From: an uncultured bacterium
GTDB lineage: Bacteria; Schekmanbacteria; GWA2-38-11; J061
Reading direction: 5' to 3'
NCBI GenBank assembly: GCA_964549305.1
Contig: CAZJVM010000033.1
Coordinates: 1 to 29,690 of the forward strand
DNA length: 29,690 nt
Shown here: positions 4,093-28,262 of the stretch, piece after piece
How positions within the stretch are numbered: the first letter of the stretch is position 1
Layout of the letters: every line of letters starts with the position of its first letter
Position numbers and translations under genes: made by a program
The notes under the pieces: model-generated
What the model was told of the DNA's origin: nothing
Seen by the model: only the letters and a program-made list of their open reading frames with translations
Databases searched by the model: none

Positions 4093-4125
4093 TAAGTTAT
4101 TTCAGCAATGGGAGGAATTATCCTT

Positions 4126-6273
4126 ATGCCGCAAAAAAAGACAGGTAAAAATTACAACAGGGAATGCCGCAATGCCGTCAACAATCCTATTCTAAAGGAA
4201 GCGCTCAACAGAACAACCGAAAGATTCACGAAAAACAGGGACAAGGCATTTTTTGAATTTGAAGACATTGAATCTGCGCGCGAAAATGCCCGCAATATAA
4301 AGAAAAATGCCATCGATAACCTTGATAAAAATATTGAAAGTTTTAAAAAAAATTTTGAAAACGCGGGCGGAACTTTCTATATGGCAAAGGATGCCTCATC
4401 TGCCTGCGGATATATAACGTCTCTTCTCAAAGAGCATAACATCACGAAAACCGTAAAATCGAAATCACTTGCATCGGAAGAGATAGGTCTTAACGAAGAA
4501 CTCGCGTCAAAGGGAATTGACGCAGTAGAAACGGACCTTGGGGAATGGATAATTCAGCTAAGGGGGGAAAAACCCTCTCATCTCATTGTTCCCGCGATGC
4601 ACTTAACTAAAGAGGTGATTGCGCGCACCTTTGAAAAAGTGGAAGGCAGGAGTCTTCCCGATGACCCCGATGAACTGGTAAAAGTCGCGAGAAGACATCT
4701 GAGACAAAAATTCATAGATGCCGAAGCGGGAATCACGGGAAGCAATTTTCTCATTGCAGATACGGGCACTCTCGTAATCCTTTCAAACGAAGGCAATGCG
4801 CGCCTTTGCTCTAGTCTTCCCCCGATTCACATTGCAGTAGTGGGAATGGAAAAGATAATCGGCACAATGGCTGAAAGCGTTCCCCTAATCCGCCTTTTAA
4901 CGAGAAATGCCACGGGACAGAATATCACAAGCTACATCTCCTACATTACGGGACCCAGTCGCACTGCCGATATCGAGCTTAACCTCACTCTCGGCGCACA
5001 CGGACCCGAAGAGGTGCATCTTGTAGTGATTGACAACGGACGCTCAGAAATTCTTGCAGATAATGAATTCAGGGAAATTCTTTACTGTCTTCGTTGCGGC
5101 GCCTGTCTTAATGTCTGTCCCGTATTCAGGGAAATCGGAGGACATATTTTCGGACATACATATATGGGAGGCATAGGTACGCTTTTGACATATTTCATAG
5201 ACGGTGCAAAAAAAGCGAAAACTCTCGCATTTTCCTGCACGGGATGCGGAGAATGCTCTGATGTATGCCCGGTAAAAATCGACATCCCCGGCCTGTTGCT
5301 CAAGCTCAGAAAGCGCTACTCGGAAAAGGGTGATTTGCCGTGGCTTAAGAAGTTTCTTTTTAAAAATGTAATTAAAAACCGCTCGCTTTTTGAAAAAAGC
5401 CTGAAAGCGGCATATCTGTCAACTTCTCCATATAAGGACAATGAAAATACTATACGCCATTTACCCTTATTCTTTTCCGGAATGACGGAATTCAGAAAGC
5501 TTCCTGCAATCGCAAAAGTTTCATTGAGGGAGAGGTTTAATTCAATAAAACAGGAAGGCAGTGATGAAGTGGTATTATTCCCGGGATGCCTCATAGAATT
5601 TGTTTATCCTCATATCGGAGAGAAAATCATAAGTCTTTTAAACAGGAACGGAAAAAAAGTTTTATTTCCGGAAAATCTCAACTGTTGCGCATATCCTCTG
5701 ATTGCGTCAGGCGACTGGAAAACCGCCAATGAAATCGCGGTTAACAATATAGAAATACTTAACAAGCAGAACTGTCCAATTATAACCGCCTGTCCAACGT
5801 GCCTTGAGGCGCTTTCGGAAAGATATCCGGAAATAATGGAAAAAGATAACGCATTATACGGCGAAGCGCTGAAAATCGCCGGAAGATGCACTGACATATC
5901 CAATTACCTCCTGAATGTACTCGGTTGCCATATAAAAACGGAATCAGGTGAAAAAATAACATACCATACCCCCTGTCATCTTAAAAAAAATAAGAAAATG
6001 GCGGACTCTCCAACGGAAATATTGAGAAAAAGCAGAGGTAACAGCTTTATTGAGATGAAAAATTCGGCTTATTGCTGTGGCGCGGGAGGTTCCTTCGCGG
6101 TGGAATATCCTCCGCTTTCAGGCGCTATTTCAAAAAGAAAAACCGATTCAATAGAAAAAACGGGCGCTGAAACTGTCGTCACATCCTGCCCGGGATGCCT
6201 GATGCAGATTGAAGGCACTCTTCAAAAACTCAAAAAAACAATTAAAGCGAAACATATTGTTGAAATTCTTTAA
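4126..6273 (+). CDS. Lactate-utilisation LutB(LldF)-LutA(LldE) fusion: LUD domain + 2x[4Fe-4S] + two CCG domains (LldH-type L-lactate dehydrogenase large subunit)
   Basis: LUD motifs KSKSLASEEIGLN, ETDLGEWIIQL, PSHLIVPAMH, NEGNAR and GPSRTADIE; CLRCGACLNVCP and CTGCGECSDVCP; CCG motifs FPGC/NCC/CPTC and YHTPCH/YCCGAGG/SCPGC. The start at 4126 follows GGGAGG. Confidence 0.9.
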   Translation: MPQKKTGKNYNRECRNAVNNPILKEALNRTTERFTKNRDKAFFEFEDIESARENARNIKKNAIDNLDKNIESFKKNFENAGGTFYMAKDASSACGYITSLLKEHNITKTVKSKSLASEEIGLNEELASKGIDAVETDLGEWIIQLRGEKPSHLIVPAMHLTKEVIARTFEKVEGRSLPDDPDELVKVARRHLRQKFIDAEAGITGSNFLIADTGTLVILSNEGNARLCSSLPPIHIAVVGMEKIIGTMAESVPLIRLLTRNATGQNITSYISYITGPSRTADIELNLTLGAHGPEEVHLVVIDNGRSEILADNEFREILYCLRCGACLNVCPVFREIGGHIFGHTYMGGIGTLLTYFIDGAKKAKTLAFSCTGCGECSDVCPVKIDIPGLLLKLRKRYSEKGDLPWLKKFLFKNVIKNRSLFEKSLKAAYLSTSPYKDNENTIRHLPLFFSGMTEFRKLPAIAKVSLRERFNSIKQEGSDEVVLFPGCLIEFVYPHIGEKIISLLNRNGKKVLFPENLNCCAYPLIASGDWKTANEIAVNNIEILNKQNCPIITACPTCLEALSERYPEIMEKDNALYGEALKIAGRCTDISNYLLNVLGCHIKTESGEKITYHTPCHLKKNKKMADSPTEILRKSRGNSFIEMKNSAYCCGAGGSFAVEYPPLSGAISKRKTDSIEKTGAETVVTSCPGCLMQIEGTLQKLKKTIKAKHIVEIL

Positions 6274-18272: not shown

Positions 18273-18334
18273 CTCTCTTAACTCTATTCAAAACCGGAAA
18301 GCTTTAAAATTAAAATACACGGAGGATTTTTTTG

Positions 18335-20983
18335 ATGCGTGATGAATTGATTAAAATTGTGGGCGAAGAGAGAAGCGCTTTCGATGATAATGAAATCAGG
18401 CAGTATGCAAGCGATATGGCGGCAATCCCAAGAGTCTTCAGAAAAATCGCCACTACGCTTCCCGATGCGGTAGTGCGCCCGGAATCAACTGATGAAGTAA
18501 GCGCCATTCTTTCATTCGCGTCGAAAAACAAAATCCCCTTAATTCCCAGAGGCACGGCATCTTCGGCACTGGGAGGAGTGCTTCCCACAAATGGGGGCAT
18601 CATTCTCGATATGACGGGAATGAACAAACTGGTCAATATAGACGAAAAAAACATGAAAGCGAAGGTTGAAGCGGGCATCGTGTGGGAAAAGTTGGACAAA
18701 GAGTTGAGCAAACACGGATTGTGCGTAAAGTCATATCCCACAAGCGCGCCTGCAAGCACCGTCGCGGGATGGATTGCAACAGGTGGATACGGAGTGGGCT
18801 CACTTGAAAACGGACATATTTCAGAACACATTGACGCTTTGACTATAGTCACCGCGAACGGTGAAATCAAAGAGCTAAGTTCTTCAACTGACGGGAAAGT
18901 TATATCTTCTCTCATAGGCACCGAAGGGCAATTTGCCGTTATAACGGAAGTGGTGCTTAATCTTCGCGGAATTCCGGAAGGAATCAAAACACTACTCTTT
19001 GAATTCAATGACGATGAATCGGGAATTAATTTTCTGAAAGCCATGGGAAGTTCCGAAGAAAAGCCCTTTTTCGTAAAATATGAAAACAGCGAATCTATGA
19101 ATGCGACTGTCGAAGATGATTCTGATAAGCTCGGGCCTTCTGTCATAGTGCGAATTGAAGGAGGTGAAGCGGAAAAAAGATCATCGGCAATCAGGGATAT
19201 TGCTTTGTTAAATTCCGGCACTGAGAAGGATGAAAAGGAAGCGCTTCATCACTGGGATGAAAGATTCTATCCGATGAGGGCAAAAAAGAAAGGCCCTTCG
19301 ATGCTTGCCGCTGAATTCCTTCTCCCCCTTTCATCCCTTACGGAAACCTTAAAGGAAGCGGATTCCCTGTTCAAATCAAAAAACATAAACACGATGATTG
19401 AAGTCCATCTTGTCTCACCTGACACCGCTCTCGTAATGACTACATATTTAAGCGATGAAAGAAACAAGGACCTTTACCTTTCACACCTGTTTCTCATAGA
19501 TGCCGTAATGAAGCTCTCCTTCAGGAAAGGAGGCATACCATACGGAACAGGCATCTGGAATGCCATCTATCTCAACAGGCGATACAGCAGTGAGGAGATA
19601 CAGAATTTAAAATCACTGAAAAAAAAGATGGATCCTGACTCGATCCTGAATCCCGGAAAGTTCTTTGAATTTCGCACGAAATTCGGCCCCGTCATTCCCT
19701 TCCTTCACTCAATCGGAATGGCAGGCGGAGGAAAACTTGCCTCATTGGGGCTTAAAATGTTCGGCTCACAACTCGAAGGTCCACTGAAGGGAGAAGCAGG
19801 CGAAGGAATAAAGAAGATCGAAAAAGAATTTGACGAGCTTTGGACCTGCGCAAAATGCGGTTTCTGCGTAATGGTCTGCCCAACATATGAAGAAATCGGA
19901 TGGGAAGGACTTACCGCAAGAGGTAAAATTAACGCGCTGAAAGATGCCTTGAGCGGCGAAAATCCTGAAATCACAAAGGAGTTGGCATTAAGGGCGTATC
20001 AGTGCACAACCTGTGGCGCCTGCAAAGAGGTGTGCCAGACAAATATAGAAACCGTAGAAATATGGGAGATGATGAGACGCGCATTCGTTGAAAAGAATAT
20101 GGGTCCCCTGCCGGAGCACGAAAACCTTCTCAAGAGCATAAAAAATTACGACAATCCTCTTCAACAGCCACGCTCGGGACGTGACAGATGGACAAGAATG
20201 GCATTAAAGGAGAAACGAATAAAGGAAAAAATTAAGGACATAACCAGGAGCAAATCGAAAGTGCTCTATCACGTGGGATGCATTGGCTCATTCGACGCGA
20301 ATGTAAAGGAAGTTGCCTATAACACATCTTTCATTCTTCAGTCTGCGGGGGTGGATTTCGGCATTCTGGGCAAAAAAGAGCTCTGTTGCGCGAGCACTCT
20401 CAAAAGAGTCGGTGACAGCGAATTTGAAAAAGTCGCCACAAAAACTCTCGAACTTTACAACAGCACGGGCGTTGAAACCGTGGTTACCTCCTGCTCGGGA
20501 TGTTACAAAACATTCAAGGATGACTATCCCCTCCTGGGCGATGTCAATTTCAAACCTATGCACATTGTTGAGTTTCTCGAAGACTTAATCAAGGAAGGAA
20601 AACTTGAATTCAAGCGCGAGCTCGATATGACAATCACATATCACGACCCCTGTCATCTCGGAAGGCACAGAAAAATATTTGAACCGCCGCGCACTGTATT
20701 AAGCGCGATTCCCGGAGTGAAACTCGTTGAAATGGAGAGAAACAGGGAAAACTCACGATGCTGCGGCGCGGGAGGAGGTTTCAGAATAGCATTCCCCGAT
20801 GTGCAGGCGCGTGTTGCGGTGAAAAGAGTACAGGATGCTGAAGAAACAGGCGCAGACTATATCGTTTCGGGATGTCCATTCTGTTATGCCGGAATTCAAA
20901 CTGCAATCAGCTCGGTGGGTTCAGACATTAAAATGATGGATCTCACCGAAATCGTTGCGATGGCTCTTCAGGAAGAGGAATAG
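18335..20983 (+). CDS. FAD-linked oxidoreductase (VAO/GlcD fold) fused to 2x[4Fe-4S] and two CCG domains (GlcD-GlcF-like fusion)
   Basis: PDAVVRP, PRGTASSALGG, STVAGWIATGG, IGTEGQFAVIT and DP..ILNPGK; CAKCGFCVMVCP and CTTCGACKEVC; HVGC/LCC/SCSGC and YHDPCHLGR/CCGAGGG/GCPFC. GGAGG RBS before ATG 18335. Confidence 0.92.
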   Translation: MRDELIKIVGEERSAFDDNEIRQYASDMAAIPRVFRKIATTLPDAVVRPESTDEVSAILSFASKNKIPLIPRGTASSALGGVLPTNGGIILDMTGMNKLVNIDEKNMKAKVEAGIVWEKLDKELSKHGLCVKSYPTSAPASTVAGWIATGGYGVGSLENGHISEHIDALTIVTANGEIKELSSSTDGKVISSLIGTEGQFAVITEVVLNLRGIPEGIKTLLFEFNDDESGINFLKAMGSSEEKPFFVKYENSESMNATVEDDSDKLGPSVIVRIEGGEAEKRSSAIRDIALLNSGTEKDEKEALHHWDERFYPMRAKKKGPSMLAAEFLLPLSSLTETLKEADSLFKSKNINTMIEVHLVSPDTALVMTTYLSDERNKDLYLSHLFLIDAVMKLSFRKGGIPYGTGIWNAIYLNRRYSSEEIQNLKSLKKKMDPDSILNPGKFFEFRTKFGPVIPFLHSIGMAGGGKLASLGLKMFGSQLEGPLKGEAGEGIKKIEKEFDELWTCAKCGFCVMVCPTYEEIGWEGLTARGKINALKDALSGENPEITKELALRAYQCTTCGACKEVCQTNIETVEIWEMMRRAFVEKNMGPLPEHENLLKSIKNYDNPLQQPRSGRDRWTRMALKEKRIKEKIKDITRSKSKVLYHVGCIGSFDANVKEVAYNTSFILQSAGVDFGILGKKELCCASTLKRVGDSEFEKVATKTLELYNSTGVETVVTSCSGCYKTFKDDYPLLGDVNFKPMHIVEFLEDLIKEGKLEFKRELDMTITYHDPCHLGRHRKIFEPPRTVLSAIPGVKLVEMERNRENSRCCGAGGGFRIAFPDVQARVAVKRVQDAEETGADYIVSGCPFCYAGIQTAISSVGSDIKMMDLTEIVAMALQEEE

Positions 20984-20993
20984 ATTATTCCAG

Positions 20994-21227
20994 CCCTCAC
21001 CTTAATCCTCTCCCGCAAATGGGAGAGGAAAATGATATGAGCTTCTTTCTACAACTGCTTAAATCACGTGACAAATAAAAAAAGGACAGCCGCAAGGGCC
21101 ATCCCTATATTTTTTTCAAAAACAAAAGCAGAGAAAAACAAGACCTGAATCCCCCGAACAAGTCGAAGGATGACAATTTATTGCACCAGGGAATTACTGC
21201 CTCGCAGTAGCCTGAAATTTATTTCGG
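20994..21227. repeat. Cluster of different short palindromic (REP-like) elements between convergent genes
   Basis: CCCTCAC...TCCTCTCCC-GCAAAT-GGGAGAGGA (20994-21029); GGACAGCCGCAAGGGCCATCCCTA (21084-21107); CTGAATCCCCCGAACAAGTCGAAGGATGACA (21145-21175); CAGG..TACTGC-CTC-GCAGTA.CCTG (21187-21214); CTGAAAT-TT-ATTTCGG (21212-21227). Confidence 0.65.
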
Positions 21228-21245: not shown

Positions 21246-22565
21246 CTACTTCAGACTTATATTTTTTATATCATCGGCGCTCTTGTCAATTCCCGTGCCG
21301 AGATTCAAAAGCTCGGCAATCTTCTCAGCCGTAATCTCAGGTGACGCGAGTAGAAGCACAGGACAGATTCCGAGAGTATTTGCTACGGAGTTTACCTCAT
21401 CTCCATTAGCTCCTGAATTTCCCTCAAACAATCCCTTAAGAGGCGTCCATGCGCTGTAAGGAGATGCCTTGCCCTCTCCCCAGGCATCTTCATAAGGGTT
21501 GCCTCCATCTGCACCTGATTCGGAAAGTGATGTAATGGCATCCTTTACATCATCAAATGTGGAGCCTTTCCCTTCTGCCGTTTTTGCCGCCTGCACCGGC
21601 TCGATTCCCAGTCGTGACGCGTATTCAAGTATTTTTCCGGCTTCGGCGGAAGCAAATCCCGCTTTCTGAAGCTTTATTAAAGATGCCGTATCGGTAACGA
21701 GAAAACCGGGTTCATCAACACCGCCCTGCGAAAGTTCGCTGGGCGCTTCGTTATACTTGAGAAATGTATTGCAGTTGTAGGGACATCCGAAACAGCTTAC
21801 GAGACGATGTACCGACGATGACGTCCAAGCTGATATATCTTCCGCTCCCAGATTCTCGGCAATGGAAACTATGCCGTTTTTACCGCTTATATTGCCGGCA
21901 GCAACCTCTTTCTTAAGTTCGGCGCAACCGTTTATGAATTCTTCAGGCGATTCGATTTCCACAAGCCCGAGACCTCTGAAGGCAACGGCTTTCAGGTTTT
22001 TTTCTGCAAAAGCGCCGGCAAGATTCCACTTGTCGGGAGTACCCCAGTAGTTGTGGCAAAGCTGTGCCGCTTTCGAACGGTTTTCTCCGGCAACACCAAT
22101 GGATACAACCTGCACCAGAGGGTCGCCCATTTCTTCCCTCAATGTGTCGGTTACTTCCCAGGGTGATTTTCCCCATAATTCCCCCGCATTCTGAAGGTCA
22201 CCGATTTCATCGTGAAGCCACAGATAGGCAGGCTCTTCCGATTTACCTTTAATCACTACAAAATCGAAACCGGTAAGCTTAAATTCCATACCGGCATTTA
22301 AGATAAGAGGCACGTGCACAACTTCTCCGTTAAGCGGGCTTTTAGCGGTAACTATCGCAGTGGCACCGCCGGGAAAAAGCGAGCCCGTAAAAGGCCCCAC
22401 ACCTATCACGATGGGATTTTCACTTTCATATTCGCGGTAAAGAGCGAGATTGGCTTTAGCCCCTCCGATATTCTCTTCAAAAAAATCGTCTCCGCAACCC
22501 TTTTCGTCAACTTCTCCCTGATTTAAATCTACCAATAAAATTCTATCTGAAAAAAGACCGGGCAT
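21246..22565 (-). CDS. Aldehyde:ferredoxin oxidoreductase (AOR)-fold protein, shortened, with degenerate pterin site
   Basis: RILLVDL, GPFTG, KSPLNG, GFDFVVIKGKS.EP.YL, LWGK, SIGVAGEN, KNLKAVAFRG, CFGCPYNC and LGIC motifs; GGAGG RBS; 439 aa. Confidence 0.85.
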   Translation of the reverse strand: MPGLFSDRILLVDLNQGEVDEKGCGDDFFEENIGGAKANLALYREYESENPIVIGVGPFTGSLFPGGATAIVTAKSPLNGEVVHVPLILNAGMEFKLTGFDFVVIKGKSEEPAYLWLHDEIGDLQNAGELWGKSPWEVTDTLREEMGDPLVQVVSIGVAGENRSKAAQLCHNYWGTPDKWNLAGAFAEKNLKAVAFRGLGLVEIESPEEFINGCAELKKEVAAGNISGKNGIVSIAENLGAEDISAWTSSSVHRLVSCFGCPYNCNTFLKYNEAPSELSQGGVDEPGFLVTDTASLIKLQKAGFASAEAGKILEYASRLGIEPVQAAKTAEGKGSTFDDVKDAITSLSESGADGGNPYEDAWGEGKASPYSAWTPLKGLFEGNSGANGDEVNSVANTLGICPVLLLASPEITAEKIAELLNLGTGIDKSADDIKNISLK

Positions 22566-22589
22566 TTTAAACCTCCGTTTACTTTTTAT

Positions 22590-22937
22590 TTATTCTTTGC
22601 TTATTGCGCCAGTGGGGCAAAAATTCACACATTTGTATTCATCACCATCACCGCAAAGGTCGCAGGTAGGCCTGATTAAAATAGGCTTAGCGGACGCGTT
22701 ATCGCTTCCTCCTCCGGAATCGCTTCCGGGTCTGTTGCATTCGACCCCCTCCGGTCTTCCCACAAGAATATCATCACTGCGCTTGATCATAATGCCGAAA
22801 TAATTTTTCTTCTCATCGGCGCGGTATATCATAACGCTGGAAGAAAGATTAGTAATCGCCTCATCGTGATAATAGCCGCAAGCCATTTCACAGGAGAGGC
22901 ATGCTATGCATTTTAACGGTTCGATTTTGAGTCCCAT
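22590..22937 (-). CDS. Small 2x[4Fe-4S] ferredoxin-like protein
   Basis: CIACLSCEMAC at the N-terminus and CDLC-x7-CVNFCPTGAI at the C-terminus; AAGGAG RBS; 24 nt before the AOR-like gene. Confidence 0.85.
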   Translation of the reverse strand: MGLKIEPLKCIACLSCEMACGYYHDEAITNLSSSVMIYRADEKKNYFGIMIKRSDDILVGRPEGVECNRPGSDSGGGSDNASAKPILIRPTCDLCGDGDEYKCVNFCPTGAISKE

Positions 22938-23076
22938 CAGTCACAATCTCCTTATTGTTTAATAAGATGTTTTCAGCACTTATATTAAATGTTTTAGCTG
23001 ATAGTCAACCATTTATTGAACACTTTTGACTTGTGTACGAAAGCATCAAAAACATAATTGCCCGCAGTAATCAGGG

Positions 23077-23451
23077 CTATGTGAAATAAACTGAATACAA
23101 GGCATAAGACCAGGCAATAATAACTAAAATGATAGTCAAAAAAACAGCGGCACTCCCCATATCTTTGGATTGCTTGGCAAGCTCATCATATTCAGGTGAA
23201 ACCTTATCCACTATCGCTTCAATTGCAGAATTAAGCAATTCCGCGACCAATACACTGATATTGCATAATAAAAGAACGATTCTAAGAGTTGCTGAAAAGG
23301 GAAGCAAGAAGAGCAGAAAGAGCAATATTACAAAAACCAAAAGCTCTTCTCTGAATGCAGATTCATTTTTGAACGCGATTTTTAATCCTGAAAAAGAGTA
23401 AAGCGTCGCGTCCAATATTCGCTTCAACCCATATTTAGATTCCGGCTTCAT
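23077..23451 (-). CDS. dgkA: Diacylglycerol kinase (prokaryotic DgkA family)
   Basis: YSFSGL..AF..ESAFREE, ELLNSAIEAIVD and AK.SKDMGSAAVF motifs; three TM helices. Confidence 0.93.
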   Translation of the reverse strand: MKPESKYGLKRILDATLYSFSGLKIAFKNESAFREELLVFVILLFLLFLLPFSATLRIVLLLCNISVLVAELLNSAIEAIVDKVSPEYDELAKQSKDMGSAAVFLTIILVIIAWSYALYSVYFT

Positions 23452-23537
23452 TTTATATTTTTTTGTAGATGTTAGACAGTATTATACACAGAATTAACTA
23501 AAATAGAGCAGGAATATTTTTATTCAGGAAACATCTA

Positions 23538-26500
23538 TCAAACGTGCTTACGATTCTTAAATTTTTCAATAAACTCATCAAAGACAGAATAAACAGAAGG
23601 GACAACAACAAGAGTAAGGAGCATAGATGTCAAAAGTCCGCCTATAATGGAAATAGCCATTGGCGCCCTGAATTCGGAACCCGGCGCATTACTCATTGCG
23701 ACAGGAAGCATACCGAAAATCATCGCCATTGTGGTCATGAGAATAGGCCTTAATCTTGTGGGTCCCGCCTCGAGAATCGCTTCTTCCCTCGACTTTCCCC
23801 TCTCTCTTAAAACATTAGTGTAATCCACAAGAAGAATCGCGTTTTTTGTCACAAGTCCCATAAGCATTATAAGCGCAAACATTGTGGACATGCTGAAGCT
23901 GAGACCGAAAACAAAAAGCGTAAGCACCGCGCCGATTATTGCAAGAGGAAGCGAAAGCATAATCGTAAAAGGATGGATAAAGGAGTTGAACTGCGATGCA
24001 AGCACCATATATATAAATACTATCGCAAGAAGCAATGCCTGAGTAAGTATTGTAAACGCCTCATCCATTCTTTCTGCCTGTCCCGTAAAACCGACTTTAT
24101 AACCGTTGGGCAGATCGATATCTTTTATTTTCCTTCTTATACTGCTAATCACATCACCCAGCGAAGCATCTTTTACATTGGATTCCACAAGCACCTGCCT
24201 CTGGCGGTTTTCACGCCTTATCTGGCTCGGTCCCTCTTCAATGTTTATCTTCGCAATTTCTCTGAGGGAAACATTTTTCCCTTCCTTGTCCTGTGTAAAA
24301 GAAATCATTCCTATATCATTTAAACTGTCGCGGTCTGTTTTTGCCAGTCTTACCTTGATATCATACTCATTGTCTCCATCCCTGAATTTTGAGGGAACTT
24401 CACCTTCTACAAGCGACCTGAGACTTGCCGCAACGGATATATTGTTCAAACCTATATCTCCCGCAAGGTTTCTGTTAATTTCAATTTCCAGTTCGGGACG
24501 ACCTCTCTGAAAAGAAGAGGAAACATCCACAGTGCCGGGAGTATTTTTGACAATAGGCAATATTTTTTCAGATATTTGCGCAAGCGTTGGAACGTCACTT
24601 CCCCTCACATATAATGTTACGGGAGCTTCCTGTCTGCCTCCCATATTGAAACTTTCAACGGTTATCTTTTCGGCGGGAATATCCCTTACTGCTGTTCGAA
24701 TCTGAGACTTCAAATCTTCGAGGTCACCGCCGGTTACTCTGTGGTTTTTATCGGTGCAATAGACATCGAGATGTGCATTGGTAACATCTTGAAGCTGGCC
24801 AATTGCCGTAAATATAGTTTTTACTTCCGGATTTTTTCTGATTAGCTCTTCGGCTTTTTTTGCCGCCCTATCGGTCATCTGAAGAGATGTGCCCGAAGGC
24901 ATTTTGATTGTAACACTTATTTCACCTCTATCCTGTTCTTCAAAAAAAGTCACCCCCACAAGAGGAAGCATAAAGAGCGAAAGCACGAAGACGCCTATGG
25001 CGCCCAATATGACTGTTCTGTTATGGCTGATTGTCCAATTGAGAATTGACCTGTATTGTGAATCTATACGATTGTATATTTTTTCAAGTTTGTCTGAAAT
25101 CCCCGAAAAAGCCGTTTTTACCTTTTCTTCACCTTTTCTTACGGGGCGCATAAAATATGCCGAAAGCATCGGGTCAAGGGTAAAAGAAACAAATAGTGAA
25201 ACGACTACGGCAAATGCCGCGGTAAGGCCGAAAGATTGAAACCACCTTCCTATCATTCCGGACATAAAGGCGATAGGGACAAAAACCGCCACAATACTGA
25301 AAGTGGTAGCCATAACTGCCAGTCCTATTTCCGATGTGCCGAATGACGCCGCTTCCTTTGGTTCCATTCCTTCTTCCATATGTCTGAATATATTTTCACG
25401 GACAACAATGGCATCGTCTATTACAACACCTACTACAAGATTCAACGCCATAAGCGTCATCACGTTTATTGTAAAGCCCATAAGATATACAAAGAAAAAT
25501 GTTGATATAAGAGAAGTTGGAAGTGAAAGAGCGCATATTAGCGTACTTCTCCAGTCTCGCATAAAGAGGAAAACAATCAGTATCGCCATCAATACTCCCT
25601 CTATGATGGCATTTCTCACTCCGCTCACATCTTCTCTTACCATAACCGAATCATCCCGTATGACAAAAATGCTGTAATCGGAGGGAAGATTTTTTTTCAA
25701 CCCGTCAATTCTTGCGTAAAGGTCATCGCAAAGGGAAACGGTATTGGTACCACTTTGTTTTTTAATTCCCATTGAAACGGCATCGGCGCCGTCTATCCTT
25801 GACAATCCGCGTTGATCCTTGAAACCATCAACGATATCCGCCACATCTCTGAGATATATGGGAACTCCGTCTCTCAGCGATACAACGACACTTTCTATAT
25901 CACCGACATTTGTAAATTCGCCTTTTGTTCTTACAACAATTTCATTCAGGTCCTTTTCAACTCTTCCCGCGGGAAGATTCATATTTTCCCTTTTAAGAAC
26001 ATTTGCCACCTGAAAAGCCGTAATCCCGTACGCGTCGAGCATATCCTTCCTGAGATTTACCTGTATTTCCCTTTCAAGCCCGCCAATGATATCTACGGAT
26101 GCCACATTTTCCACCTGCTCAATTGCGGGTTTTATTTCGTTCTCCGCCACATCCCTTATCTCCGAGGGGTGTCGGGGTGCCGATATGCCTATCCACATAA
26201 CAGGTCTCTGCGCAGGGTCCATTCGCTCGATTACCGGTTCCTTTACATCATCAGGCAAATCCGTCTTCTTCTGAAAAACCTTTTCCCTCACTTCTATTGA
26301 AGCAATCTTTATTGGTATTTCAAACTCAAACTCAAGAATAATCCTCGACAATCCTTCCGTTGTAATGGAATTTATCTTTTTGATGCCGTTAACAGAGCTG
26401 ACTGCTTCCTCGAGAGGTTTGGTCACTGTAGTTTCAACTTCCGACGGACTTGCTCCGGGATATCTTGTGGAAACGGTAATGAAGGGAGGATTTACTTCAG

Positions 26501-26612
26501 GAGTCTGCTGAATTCCGAGATAGGAGATCGAAACAATGCCGAGCACCATAAGGGCGGCAATCATCATTACGGCAAAAACCGGGCGATTTATTGATATCTC
26601 TGATATTAACAC
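23538..26612 (-). CDS. RND efflux transporter permease (AcrB/MdtB-like)
   Basis: 1024 aa; RPVFA, YPGASPSEVE, GVVIDDAIVVRENI, TLDPML, GLVTKNAILLVD and RLRPILMTT motifs. The GTG start overlaps the MFP stop. Confidence 0.96.
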   Translation of the reverse strand: MLISEISINRPVFAVMMIAALMVLGIVSISYLGIQQTPEVNPPFITVSTRYPGASPSEVETTVTKPLEEAVSSVNGIKKINSITTEGLSRIILEFEFEIPIKIASIEVREKVFQKKTDLPDDVKEPVIERMDPAQRPVMWIGISAPRHPSEIRDVAENEIKPAIEQVENVASVDIIGGLEREIQVNLRKDMLDAYGITAFQVANVLKRENMNLPAGRVEKDLNEIVVRTKGEFTNVGDIESVVVSLRDGVPIYLRDVADIVDGFKDQRGLSRIDGADAVSMGIKKQSGTNTVSLCDDLYARIDGLKKNLPSDYSIFVIRDDSVMVREDVSGVRNAIIEGVLMAILIVFLFMRDWRSTLICALSLPTSLISTFFFVYLMGFTINVMTLMALNLVVGVVIDDAIVVRENIFRHMEEGMEPKEAASFGTSEIGLAVMATTFSIVAVFVPIAFMSGMIGRWFQSFGLTAAFAVVVSLFVSFTLDPMLSAYFMRPVRKGEEKVKTAFSGISDKLEKIYNRIDSQYRSILNWTISHNRTVILGAIGVFVLSLFMLPLVGVTFFEEQDRGEISVTIKMPSGTSLQMTDRAAKKAEELIRKNPEVKTIFTAIGQLQDVTNAHLDVYCTDKNHRVTGGDLEDLKSQIRTAVRDIPAEKITVESFNMGGRQEAPVTLYVRGSDVPTLAQISEKILPIVKNTPGTVDVSSSFQRGRPELEIEINRNLAGDIGLNNISVAASLRSLVEGEVPSKFRDGDNEYDIKVRLAKTDRDSLNDIGMISFTQDKEGKNVSLREIAKINIEEGPSQIRRENRQRQVLVESNVKDASLGDVISSIRRKIKDIDLPNGYKVGFTGQAERMDEAFTILTQALLLAIVFIYMVLASQFNSFIHPFTIMLSLPLAIIGAVLTLFVFGLSFSMSTMFALIMLMGLVTKNAILLVDYTNVLRERGKSREEAILEAGPTRLRPILMTTMAMIFGMLPVAMSNAPGSEFRAPMAISIIGGLLTSMLLTLVVVPSVYSVFDEFIEKFKNRKHV

Positions 26613-27775
26613 TATAGGATACCTTTTCTCACCAATGCGCCATCATAAAGGCGGGATTTGTTGGAAACTATAATTTCATCTGTGCCGGCTATTCCCTTTG
26701 TAGCCTGAATAAAGTTTCCTTCCGCGATGCCTGTTTCCAATTCCTTTTCAACGGCTTTGTTGCCGTTTATTAAAAAAACAAATTGTTTATTTCCCTTTTT
26801 AAATACGGCATCTCTCGGAATCATCAGAGCATTCTTTATCGTTTCAAGCTGAACCCTTACTTCCACGAAAAGCCCTGACATAAGCTCCATATTAGCGTTA
26901 TCTATCTGCAATATGGCAACGGAAGACCTTGTTTTCTGGTCAACGGCAGGGGAAACTCTGGTTATCTCTCCTTTGAAAATCTTGTCAGCCATTGAAGGAA
27001 CTTCAATTTCTCCACTCTGCCCTACCTTAAGGAAAGGAGAAAATTTCGCCGGAACCTTTACGAGGACTTTGACTTTTTTCAGGTTTTCAATCGTAAAAAG
27101 GGCTTTGGAATTATTTCCTCCTGATGAATATACCATTGTGCCTATATCCACGTTCTGTCTTGTTACGATTCCGTCAATGGGCGATCTTATCCAACAGTCG
27201 GCAAGGTCTTTTTTTGCAATATCAAGTTTTGCCTTTTTCTCGTCATTTGCCTGCGCCTCGGAAAGCTTTACCGTTGAAAGGGCGCTTAAATACTGCCCTT
27301 TCTCTTTTCTGTATTCTTCATCTGACATCATACCGTTATTATGGAGTGTATCGGCGCTTTCATATTCCGCTTTCTCCCTCTCGAGTGTGCCCCGTGCTTT
27401 TTCAAGGTCGGCAAGGGCAACCTTGAGTACCGCTTCTGCCTCTCTGACTTTTAATTCCTTATCTCTATGCTCGATTACCGCAATCACATCACCCTTTGAT
27501 ATGACATCCCCTATACCGACTTTTATATGCTCGATACGCCCGGTAACCTTTGAAACTATTTCAACACCAACATTGGGATATATGTCTCCCGTCATTGTAA
27601 TCATATTGTTCACATCGCGCGTTTCCACTGTCTTTATCGTTACCGGAACGCCTTCGCCCACAAGAGATTCCTTTTCCCCGGACCCGTTGCTCACGGCAAT
27701 GAAGACTCTGTAGCCCACAAACAGAAAAACTACGGAAATTATTAATGCCAACACCTTCTTTTTTTTAGGAGTCAT
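26612..27775 (-). CDS. RND periplasmic adaptor (membrane fusion protein)
   Basis: N-terminal TM; SKVTGRI, V.IGD.I.KGD.IA, helical hairpin, IRSPIDGIV and LMSGLFV motifs. Confidence 0.93.
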   Translation of the reverse strand: MTPKKKKVLALIISVVFLFVGYRVFIAVSNGSGEKESLVGEGVPVTIKTVETRDVNNMITMTGDIYPNVGVEIVSKVTGRIEHIKVGIGDVISKGDVIAVIEHRDKELKVREAEAVLKVALADLEKARGTLEREKAEYESADTLHNNGMMSDEEYRKEKGQYLSALSTVKLSEAQANDEKKAKLDIAKKDLADCWIRSPIDGIVTRQNVDIGTMVYSSGGNNSKALFTIENLKKVKVLVKVPAKFSPFLKVGQSGEIEVPSMADKIFKGEITRVSPAVDQKTRSSVAILQIDNANMELMSGLFVEVRVQLETIKNALMIPRDAVFKKGNKQFVFLINGNKAVEKELETGIAEGNFIQATKGIAGTDEIIVSNKSRLYDGALVRKGIL

Positions 27776-27794
27776 CTATTTATACCTTATAAAT

Positions 27795-28262
27795 TTAACT
27801 TATATTGTCCTGAGACTTTATTCTTGAACTGATTCTTTCAAAAAGCTCTATGAGAGAGATCTGGTCACTCTCTGTAAGAAGTCCCAAAAAGCTTTCGATT
27901 CTTTCCCTTCTTATCTTCCATAACTTTGATACCATTGCCGAACCGCTTTTTGTAAGGCCTACTTTAACCAATCTTCTGTCAGATTCATCCCTGAATCGGT
28001 CAACGTAACCTTCTCTTACCAGTCTGTCCGTAATTCCCGTAATGGTGCTCATATGAAGCCCCATCCACGATTTCAATTCCGACATTGTGCTTGAGGGATT
28101 TCTTCTCAGGTAAAGCATAACCATAAATTGTGCTTCCGTTACCCTTGAATCTGAGAATCGGTATCTTGTCTTCACCCGTGAAACATTATAAAATTCCCAG
28201 AAAGCTTTTTCAAACCGCTCGGCCTTTACAGAAACTCCGTTATTTTTAACCTTCTCATTCAT
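27795..28262 (-). CDS. MarR-family transcriptional regulator
   Basis: VTEAQF..M..L, TMSEL, STITGITDRLV..GYV.R...ESDRR...V.LT..G; first gene of the efflux operon. Confidence 0.93.
   Translation of the reverse strand: MNEKVKNNGVSVKAERFEKAFWEFYNVSRVKTRYRFSDSRVTEAQFMVMLYLRRNPSSTMSELKSWMGLHMSTITGITDRLVREGYVDRFRDESDRRLVKVGLTKSGSAMVSKLWKIRRERIESFLGLLTESDQISLIELFERISSRIKSQDNIS

Follow-up and report, generated by a model that had tools for sequence, protein, structure and literature searches.

A short AOR-like gene paired with a ferredoxin-like gene

The 29,690-nucleotide (nt) contig CAZJVM010000033.1 (assembly GCA_964549305.1, hereafter the window) from an uncultured member of the Schekmanbacteria carries a short relative of aldehyde ferredoxin oxidoreductase (AOR). 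The gene lies on the minus strand, a detail absent from the initial annotation of this DNA, and occupies positions 21246..22565 as the uninterrupted 439-amino acid (aa) open reading frame (ORF) described there. Its strong ribosome-binding site, also claimed initially, is the minus-strand Shine-Dalgarno sequence GGAGG at 22572..22576, which is read directly from the sequence and is located 6 nt 5′ of the ATG (22576-22572 in the direction of transcription). A second minus-strand gene at 22590..22937 encodes a 115-aa ferredoxin-like small subunit recognized by Pfam Fer4 families. Only 24 nt separate the end of this gene from the start of the short AOR gene and the spacer contains the Shine-Dalgarno sequence of the latter, suggesting that the two are co-transcribed. 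A weak candidate promoter for the pair was read by eye on the minus strand at 22979..23008 (TTGACT at 23008-23003, an 18-nt spacer, and TATAAG at 22984-22979); a consensus scan did not list it, and the scan total was no higher than in shuffled sequence. A consensus match to a terminator-like hairpin followed by a T-run is found at 21082..21106 (minus strand), 140 nt past the stop codon of the short AOR gene and between convergent genes, and the number of such hairpin-type matches is not above that in shuffles.

Pfam places the AOR domain AFOR_N (PF02730/IPR013983) at residues 8-198 of the 439-aa protein with 140.8 bits against a cut-off of 29.8 (E = 6.2e-41). The other AOR domain, AFOR_C (PF01314/IPR001203), is sub-threshold at 23.9 bits against a cut-off of 27 and matches residues 390-437 only; in the Atlas clusters nearest to the protein, AFOR_C is carried by 10-29% of members. 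The AOR and GAPOR models of NCBIfam score far under their cut-offs, and their matches are confined to the N-terminal 200 residues. The scaffold motifs noted in the initial annotation are located in the translation at residues 74-79 (KSPLNG), 99-109 (GFDFVVIKGKS), 155-162 (SIGVAGEN), and 189-194 (KNLKAV), and the cluster motifs at 258-265 (CFGCPYNC) and 398-401 (LGIC). The segments that were said to replace the cofactor and catalytic motifs are GGAT at 66-69, VPLIL at 85-89, GTPDKWN at 175-181, PGFL at 286-289, SRLGIE at 317-322, and NTLGIC at 396-401.

A predicted AOR fold with replaced pterin ligands

AlphaFold (AF2) with a 74-sequence alignment was used to model the 439-aa protein. The model has a predicted local distance difference test (pLDDT) score of 94.9 and a predicted template modeling (pTM) score of 0.94, and it shows the AOR fold that had been proposed from motifs. 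Superposition by VIA-align on Pyrococcus furiosus AOR (1aor_A) gives Z = 34.3 and a root mean square deviation of 2.4 Å with 423 of the 439 residues aligned, and the three-domain fold is matched with Z values of 29-34 in 1aor, 9mqx, 9g7j, 1b25, 8c0z, 6x1o, and 4z3w. Foldseek aligns the model to 1aor_A with E = 6.6e-28. As modeled, the AOR fold of the protein is complete, with domain 1 present and domains 2 and 3 trimmed, so that ~100 internal residues of AOR are missing. Model residues 2-439 are placed on residues 1-529 of the 605 in 1aor_A, and therefore the C-terminal ~75 residues are also absent, in agreement with the truncation noted initially.

The equivalences to P. furiosus AOR had been drawn by eye and are now backed by printed alignments. 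A phmmer alignment of the 439-aa protein to 1aor_A covers domain 1 with an offset of 7, and the same domain-1 match at a constant 7-residue offset is obtained with 1aor_A, 8c0z_A, 9mqx_D, and other solved structures. A canonical AOR of the same genome (L001) aligned full length to 1aor_A served as the numbering bridge. The profile of 74 short homologues was aligned to the profile of 33 full-length AORs using hhalign (probability 100, E = 7e-65). Single-sequence and family-profile searches against the PDB align domain 1 only, and the C-terminal mapping is taken from the profile-profile and structural alignments.

These alignments identify all four [4Fe-4S] cysteines in the window protein, where C258, C261, and C265 correspond to AOR C288, C291, and C295, and C401 corresponds to C494. 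The cofactor positions R76, N93, R182, D338, and D489 of P. furiosus AOR are occupied by A68, P86, G175, S317, and N396, and charge is kept at two further equivalent positions (K179 for R186 and E322 for D343). R76, N93, R182, D338, and D489 are reported from the 1995 structure to function in bis-pyranopterin and Mg/phosphate binding. The same positions are replaced throughout the 74 homologues. The R76 equivalent is Cys in 40, Ala in 25, and Ser in 7, and Arg is outside the five commonest residues; the N93 equivalent is Pro in 73; the R182 equivalent is Gly in 51, with Arg again outside the five commonest; the D338 equivalent is Ala, Ser, Tyr, Phe, or Cys; and the D489 equivalent is Tyr in 62. 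The 33 full-length AORs have Arg at the R182 equivalent in 31 cases and at the R186 equivalent in 32, and Asp at the D343 equivalent in all 33; H448 and the four cysteines are each present in 33/33. The residues that hold the pterin, Mg, and phosphate are thus replaced family-wide, and a pattern that recurs over 74 homologues is not due to chance.

The active-site residues of AOR listed in a recent classification are T243, E313, Y427, and H448 (PMC13328260). In the profile alignment, the segments containing T243, Y427, and H448 fall in deletions or unalignable stretches of the short family. The GGxH448 segment of AOR has no counterpart there, which bears out the reported absence of GGCH, and no invariant His was found beyond residue 254 of the short family. 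In this alignment the short chain stops about 70 residues ahead of the AOR C-terminus. Which residue corresponds to E313 is ambiguous; the alignment has a 7-residue gap there, near a conserved E285-P-G motif.

The short forms are an old clade under purifying selection

A word-indexed protein search with the 439-aa sequence returned 164 matches, of which 120 were listed. Among those listed, 85 proteins (P0002-P0086) of ≤519 aa cover the whole query with E ≤ 2e-40, whereas for the canonical AORs (592-677 aa) the E-values begin at 1.3e-31 and the match is limited to the first half of the query. When cluster representatives were searched exhaustively, 70 clusters scored below 1e-30, most of them of 400-500 aa. 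The closest relatives listed are from Candidatus Schekmanbacteria (83-67% identity), followed by Desulfobacterota, Halobacteriota, and Methanomassiliicoccales, and the members are named in databases only as 'hypothetical protein' or 'aldehyde ferredoxin oxidoreductase N-terminal domain-containing protein'. What sets the ~500-aa relatives apart is no more than a ~36-aa tail plus two short inserts. A search with residues 200-439 found no fused or longer forms among 770-2195-aa proteins, which is weak evidence for their absence. A pattern-limited scan with one genome per species confirmed relatives in at least 279 species genomes, and the locus analyses used the best 80 of the 279 stretches, 48 of which are labeled Thermodesulfobacteriota and 5 of which are archaeal. 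The carriers include a cultured organism, Desulfosarcina cetonica (L075). A recognizable target ORF was obtained in 74 of the 80 loci and in the window; it was lost in the gene call at L051, L059, L080, L083, L085, and L086.

FastTree was used to relate 131 sequences, consisting of the 74 aligned short homologues, 24 more short representatives, and 33 full-length AORs. Of the 98 short sequences, 97 group together as a single clade whose branch has a length of 1.1 and a support of 100, with the full-length AORs on the other side; the remaining sequence (P0191, 456 aa) branches just outside the short clade. Orthologues are present in 4/4 same-order genomes with identities of 82, 67, 47, and 53%, the last being cut by a contig end. 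Comparison of the window's genome (G000) with its relative G001 gives a proportion of nonsynonymous differences (pN) of 0.108 and a proportion of synonymous differences (pS) of 0.803 for the short AOR gene (pN/pS ~0.13), where both values are proportions and synonymous sites are saturated in close pairs. The corresponding pN/pS values are 0.071/0.937 for the ferredoxin-like gene and 0.128/0.736 for an 883-aa neighbor considered below. The gene is therefore under the purifying selection that had been framed as dN/dS<1. These results establish that the short forms are an old, separate, monophyletic clade of 420-520-aa proteins maintained by purifying selection. The homologues of ~430-455 aa that were collected bear this out, since the nearest of them share the same replacements and are not intact AORs, so that the refuting outcome named in the initial annotation (nearest homologues with full length and intact motifs) was not obtained. 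The pterin ligands were lost selectively and long ago, in a gene that purifying selection maintains, and the protein has therefore been repurposed and is not decaying, as had been proposed.

Variable cluster ligands and new conserved residues

The initial annotation made retention of the [4Fe-4S] ligands a defining feature of the protein. This holds for the window protein and for the Schekmanbacteria clade (10/10 nearest sequences) but not for the family, in which all four cysteines are kept in 35/74 proteins and at 12/75 loci; the function common to the family therefore does not center on the cluster. Many relatives have cysteines at four other positions (68, 214, 288, and 316), either with the canonical set or instead of it, among P0028-P0066 and the proteins at loci L057, L063, L065, L073, L076, and L082. 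The window protein has Ala, Cys, Phe, and Ala at these positions. Position 68 is the R76 equivalent and position 316 adjoins the D338 equivalent, and to judge from the sequences these cysteines may form an additional metal-binding site, or one that replaces the original, within the former cofactor pocket. Neither cysteine set is present at 60 of the 75 loci; CTTH and DTTQ are the common patterns.

A constellation of other residues is invariant or nearly invariant in the family, consisting of W116, H118, D119, Y173, W174, D178, H253, R254, E285-P286-G287, D292, F370-S371, G399, and P402. Several of these family-specific residues lie in what are the pterin-holding loops of AOR. The initial description of the protein as a candidate pseudoenzyme is correct as to the loss of pterin and catalytic residues, but the term 'pseudoenzyme' is not established, because conserved polar and aromatic residues occupy the places of the former cofactor loops. 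No support was found for the sensor role that had also been suggested.

The ferredoxin-like partner

The 115-aa protein has eight cysteines (C10, C13, C16, C20, C92, C95, C103, and C107), enough for two [4Fe-4S] clusters, and all eight are invariant in 60/60 aligned partners of 115-130 aa. Conservation of a ferredoxin partner, which the initial annotation proposed to check, is confirmed by its position directly upstream and on the same strand in 69/74 loci, a placement not described there; at the remaining five, the ORF call for the short AOR gene extended too far and overlaps the partner gene. The best PDB matches of the partner profile are AorA (8c0z_C, 1.9e-9), 9mqx_E (4.4e-9), BamC (4z3w_E, 2e-5), and the small subunit of the P. 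furiosus tungsten-containing oxidoreductase (WOR) WOR5 (6x1o_B, 4e-4). A model of moderate confidence (pLDDT 69.5) has BamC (4z3y_E, 3.7e-4) and AorA (4.5e-4) as its top Foldseek matches. A weak match to NCBIfam PRK09898 'ferredoxin-like protein' was also obtained, a model that presumably corresponds to YdhY. These results identify the partner as a shortened homologue of the AOR-family small subunits AorA, BamC, and WorS. Since its best matches are the small Fe-S subunits of AOR-family enzymes, the two window proteins are a reduced version of the WorS-WorL pair, the small and large subunits of class II WORs.

A recurrent dehydrogenase and wider gene clusters

Convergent to the short AOR gene is a plus-strand gene at 18332..20983 that encodes an 883-aa fusion of a GlcD-like flavin adenine dinucleotide (FAD) dehydrogenase with a GlcF/HdrD-like Fe-S protein, identified with Pfam and NCBIfam. 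Its domains are FAD_binding_4, FAD-oxidase_C, Fer4_8, and two CCG domains. Relatives in the PDB include LctD (7qh2_C, 4.5e-27), D-lactate dehydrogenase, glycolate oxidase, and HdrB, and the NCBIfam matches (GlcD, TfrB, LdhH, and YdiJ) are all under their cut-offs. A link between the pair and this dehydrogenase was absent from the initial annotation. GlcD-like/CCG genes are found within ~6 kb of the pair in 58/75 loci, the window included, in three arrangements. The ~880-aa fusion is convergent to the pair in 4/4 readable Schekmanbacteria genomes (G000-G003), and G001, G002, and G003 all keep the triad of partner, short AOR gene, and fusion, even though G003 otherwise has different flanks. In Desulfobacterota a divergent GlcD/CCG cluster is found. 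In G028 and at loci L063, L065, L073, and L082 the genes form a same-strand operon in the order FAD, CCG, FAD, ferredoxin-like partner, short AOR gene, CCG. The occurrence of three different arrangements in different lineages makes a functional link likely between the pair and a dehydrogenase of the GlcD/GlcF(HdrD) type, on gene-neighborhood grounds and with the qualification that related genomes are not independent samples.

A gene for a BPL_N/GATase1-like protein is located directly 3′ of the short AOR gene in 53/74 loci. The Desulfobacterota loci usually also have downstream genes for a multiheme cytochrome c (41/75), a cytochrome b561-type protein (38), and a cytochrome c/NarI-like fusion (42), and divergent upstream genes for a GntR regulator (40), a GlcD-like FAD_binding_4 protein (44), a CCG/Fer4_8 protein (55), and, at some loci, a CoA-acylating methylmalonate-semialdehyde dehydrogenase (16). 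This is a recurrent and apparently undescribed Desulfobacterota gene cluster around the pair (loci L010-L088). At L025, L032, L035, L044, and L054, a Fer4_11 protein and an enzyme of the molybdenum bis-pyranopterin guanine dinucleotide (Mo-bisPGD) type take the place of the cytochromes, with NrfD in all of these except L032. The window's genome encodes a 394-aa homologue of the GATase1/BPL_N-like protein (33% identity, E = 3.3e-71) at G000:C1:9190-10317 (L099/L100). This gene was rejected as a partner; it is on another contig, amid the housekeeping genes for GMP synthase, PheA, TrpS, and Mfd, and is unlinked to the pair.

Cofactor synthesis in carrier genomes

Profile searches detected MoaA-C, MoeA_N, and MoaE in the window's genome. 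The same 2.9-Mb genome has 12 other AFOR_N matches, an unusually large AOR complement; their open frames span 584-662 aa, apart from a 499-aa frame that is still open where its locus stops. With 12 other AFOR_N matches present, the ability of the host to make the cofactor says nothing about the short protein. Co-occurrence across bacteria is equally uninformative, since 46/47 bacterial carriers have MoeA_N. Two Methanomassiliicoccales genomes carry the ferredoxin-like gene and the short AOR gene. In the first (G031, via L047), which has McrA and a 385-kb contig, no match to MoaC, MoaA-C, MoeA_N, MoaE, or AFOR_C was detected. The second (G032, via L072) gave the same null set and is less certain, as it also has no McrA match and may be incomplete. 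Because both carry the family without a detected full-length AOR, a dedicated role in AOR maturation is argued against.

Relation to known AOR-family systems

The 439-aa protein is an AOR/WOR relative by fold and ancestry. It is not filed as a WorL enzyme because AFOR_C is under threshold and the pyranopterin and active-site residues are missing. The class II WorL and WorS proteins, represented by P. furiosus AOR and WOR5, resemble the window pair in the three-domain fold of the large subunit, in a [4Fe-4S] cysteine motif at the same position, in gene order (small Fe-S subunit, then large), and in the homology of the small subunits. Unlike WorL, the short protein has neither the bis-pyranopterin/Mg residues nor the H448 segment, and it has ~100 internal and ~75 C-terminal residues fewer. 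Its partner has eight cysteines for two clusters, whereas the WorS definition demands four [4Fe-4S] clusters (PMC13328260). The class II benzoyl-CoA reductase BamBC likewise joins an AOR-fold large subunit to a small ferredoxin-like partner, BamC being the best structural match of the window partner, and it shows that the AOR fold can serve non-aldehyde chemistry. BamB keeps its tungsten-pterin according to PDB entry titles and a review (PMC12096430), whereas the short protein lacks the ligands. Escherichia coli YdhV/YdhY (Class V WOR) is also AOR-like, with ferredoxin-like partners, links to membrane electron transport, and an unknown physiological role. YdhV has ~700 aa and binds Mo-bis-molybdopterin (PMC9103625, PMC13328260), in contrast to the 439-aa, cytoplasmic protein without these ligands.

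A 2026 classification of 4,064 WorL sequences required both InterPro domains and describes the cofactor-coordinating residues as highly conserved (PMC13328260). As both AOR domains were required, the short family is probably outside that survey; the clades that the survey dropped (24, 32, 37, 39, and 59) might contain these proteins. A 2025 review states that all known AOR/WOR members contain a W- or Mo-bis-metallopterin (PMC12096430). The initial annotation knew of no characterized example of such a protein, and our searches of the main text of openly available papers agree in finding no short or pterin-free AOR family. The short clade goes against the assumption that every member of the AOR/WOR superfamily depends on the pterin cofactor, and it offers an example of a pterin enzyme fold reused after cofactor loss. 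It is also a warning for metagenome surveys, where such genes are not to be counted as 'tungsten enzymes'. Together with the ferredoxin-like partner, the GATase1-like protein, cytochromes c and b, and the GlcD/CCG dehydrogenases, the short protein belongs to an uncharacterized, strongly conserved gene set of anaerobes. A conceptual precedent is NuoG/Nqo3 of complex I, in which a cofactor-less domain with the Mo-bisPGD fold retains the fold of a pterin enzyme as an Fe-S-bearing or structural part of an electron-transfer complex. NuoG/Nqo3 has the dimethyl sulfoxide reductase fold, which belongs to a different superfamily from the AOR fold, and no homology is implied.

Proposed function and alternatives

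The reading that we favor, and to which we give about an even chance, is that the two proteins form a tungsten-free Fe-S heterodimer derived from WorL/WorS that acts as an electron-transfer or adaptor module for a GlcD-GlcF/HdrD-type dehydrogenase, with the large protein chiefly holding and docking the small one where its own cluster is lost. The ancestor would have been a WorL/WorS tungsten oxidoreductase, and the present module would no longer bind a W/Mo bis-pyranopterin. In this organism the heterodimer would contain three [4Fe-4S] clusters, two in the small subunit and one in the large, and would pass electrons for, or adapt, the neighboring FAD/Fe-S dehydrogenase, which probably oxidizes a D-2-hydroxyacid (lactate, glycolate, or 2-hydroxyglutarate). 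In most other lineages, the large subunit would lack a cluster of its own and would mainly hold the small subunit and dock it to partners such as the GATase1-like protein and the membrane cytochromes. We infer the heterodimer from a conserved gene pair and the redox partner from a neighboring gene.

Several observations weigh against this proposal. Charge is kept family-wide at two cofactor-side positions, where the R186 equivalent is Lys in 45 and Arg in 18 of the 74 homologues and the D343 equivalent is Glu in 45 and Asp in 24. With all four cluster cysteines kept in only 35/74 proteins and 12/75 loci, electron relay by the large subunit cannot be the common family function. The former cofactor loops contain the near-invariant residues H84, Y173, W174, D178, E285, and D292, to which H118, D119, H253, and R254 are added, and in the sequences these newly acquired polar and aromatic positions resemble a functional site more than simple space filling. 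Independence from the cofactor is drawn from one or two archaeal genomes that come without completeness figures, and 46/47 bacterial carriers have MoeA_N. The evidence for the FAD/CCG link is gene neighborhood; 17/75 loci have no GlcD/CCG gene within the fetched DNA, and in the window the dehydrogenase gene is convergent to the pair and not co-transcribed with it.

The same conserved residues speak for the main alternative, which we think somewhat unlikely, that the short protein is still an enzyme. A new active site would be built from the replacement residues, some clades would have a new metal or Fe-S center, the small subunit would feed or drain electrons, and the reaction would involve a substrate or product of the 2-hydroxyacid dehydrogenase. 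Consistent with this, H84, H118, D119, Y173, W174, D178, H253, R254, E285, and D292 are near-invariant in all subclades whether or not the cluster cysteines are kept, the cysteines at 68, 214, 288, and 316 are found in many relatives including clades without the canonical ligands, and the operon partners are fixed, with the GATase1/BPL_N-like gene directly downstream in 53/74 loci and cytochromes c and b beyond. However, the window protein has just one of the four extra cysteines (pattern ACFA), its C-terminal half matches no known catalytic motif or family, and the conserved residues may just as well have a role in packing or subunit contacts. A bolder version, which we regard as unlikely, is that the short proteins make up a novel enzyme class with the AOR fold. 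Their pocket would have been refitted with conserved His, Asp, Glu, and Trp, joined in certain clades by the four additional cysteines, so as to hold another cofactor or Fe-S center, giving the cytoplasmic catalytic head of an undescribed redox complex that, with the small subunit, would link 2-hydroxyacid dehydrogenases to membrane cytochromes without W or Mo in sulfate reducers and their relatives.

A protein without any redox role, acting as a scaffold or assembly factor that, for example, holds the small subunit or matures or regulates the 12 canonical AORs of the same genome, would account for the lack of a complete cluster site in most members (60/75 loci) when the small subunit never lacks its own, and the genome does have those 12 other AFOR_N matches. 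This explanation is nonetheless improbable, as the four cysteines are kept in 10/10 of the closest sequences of this lineage and the family is present in G031 and G032, where a full-length AOR was not detected. It is less probable still that the protein is a true but highly diverged oxidoreductase, of aldehydes or another kind, which still binds a W/Mo-bis-pyranopterin in a divergent manner. The overall fold is kept, the R186 and D343 equivalents keep their charge, and the host makes the cofactor (MoaA-C, MoeA_N, and MoaE). Against these points, the equivalents of R76, N93, R182, D338, and D489 are replaced family-wide, the H448 segment and ~100 residues of domains 2 and 3 are missing, AFOR_C is under its cut-off, and the pair is found in a methanogen genome without matches for molybdenum cofactor synthesis. 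That the gene is a decaying remnant of a full-length AOR gene has almost no probability. Its short length relative to AOR and the missing catalytic motifs fit a remnant, but this reading was rejected on the uninterrupted frame, the strong ribosome-binding site, pN/pS of ~0.13, presence in 4/4 same-order genomes and in at least 279 species genomes, the deep monophyletic clade, and the pLDDT of 94.9.

Other genes in the window

Upstream of the pair, the minus strand carries genes for a prokaryotic diacylglycerol kinase (23077-23451), an AcrB-type resistance-nodulation-division (RND) pump (23538-26612), its HlyD-type adaptor (26612-27775), and a MarR regulator (27795-28262). None of this 23077-28262 flank adjoins the pair in G003. 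The pump genes are kept in G001 and G002, where other unidentified ORFs are found at the place of the diacylglycerol kinase gene. A plus-strand gene at 4108-6273 encodes a 721-aa protein with LUD_dom, Fer4_8, and two CCG domains, an architecture of the LutB/LdhH lactate-utilization type, and is the second CCG-type gene of the window related to 2-hydroxyacids.

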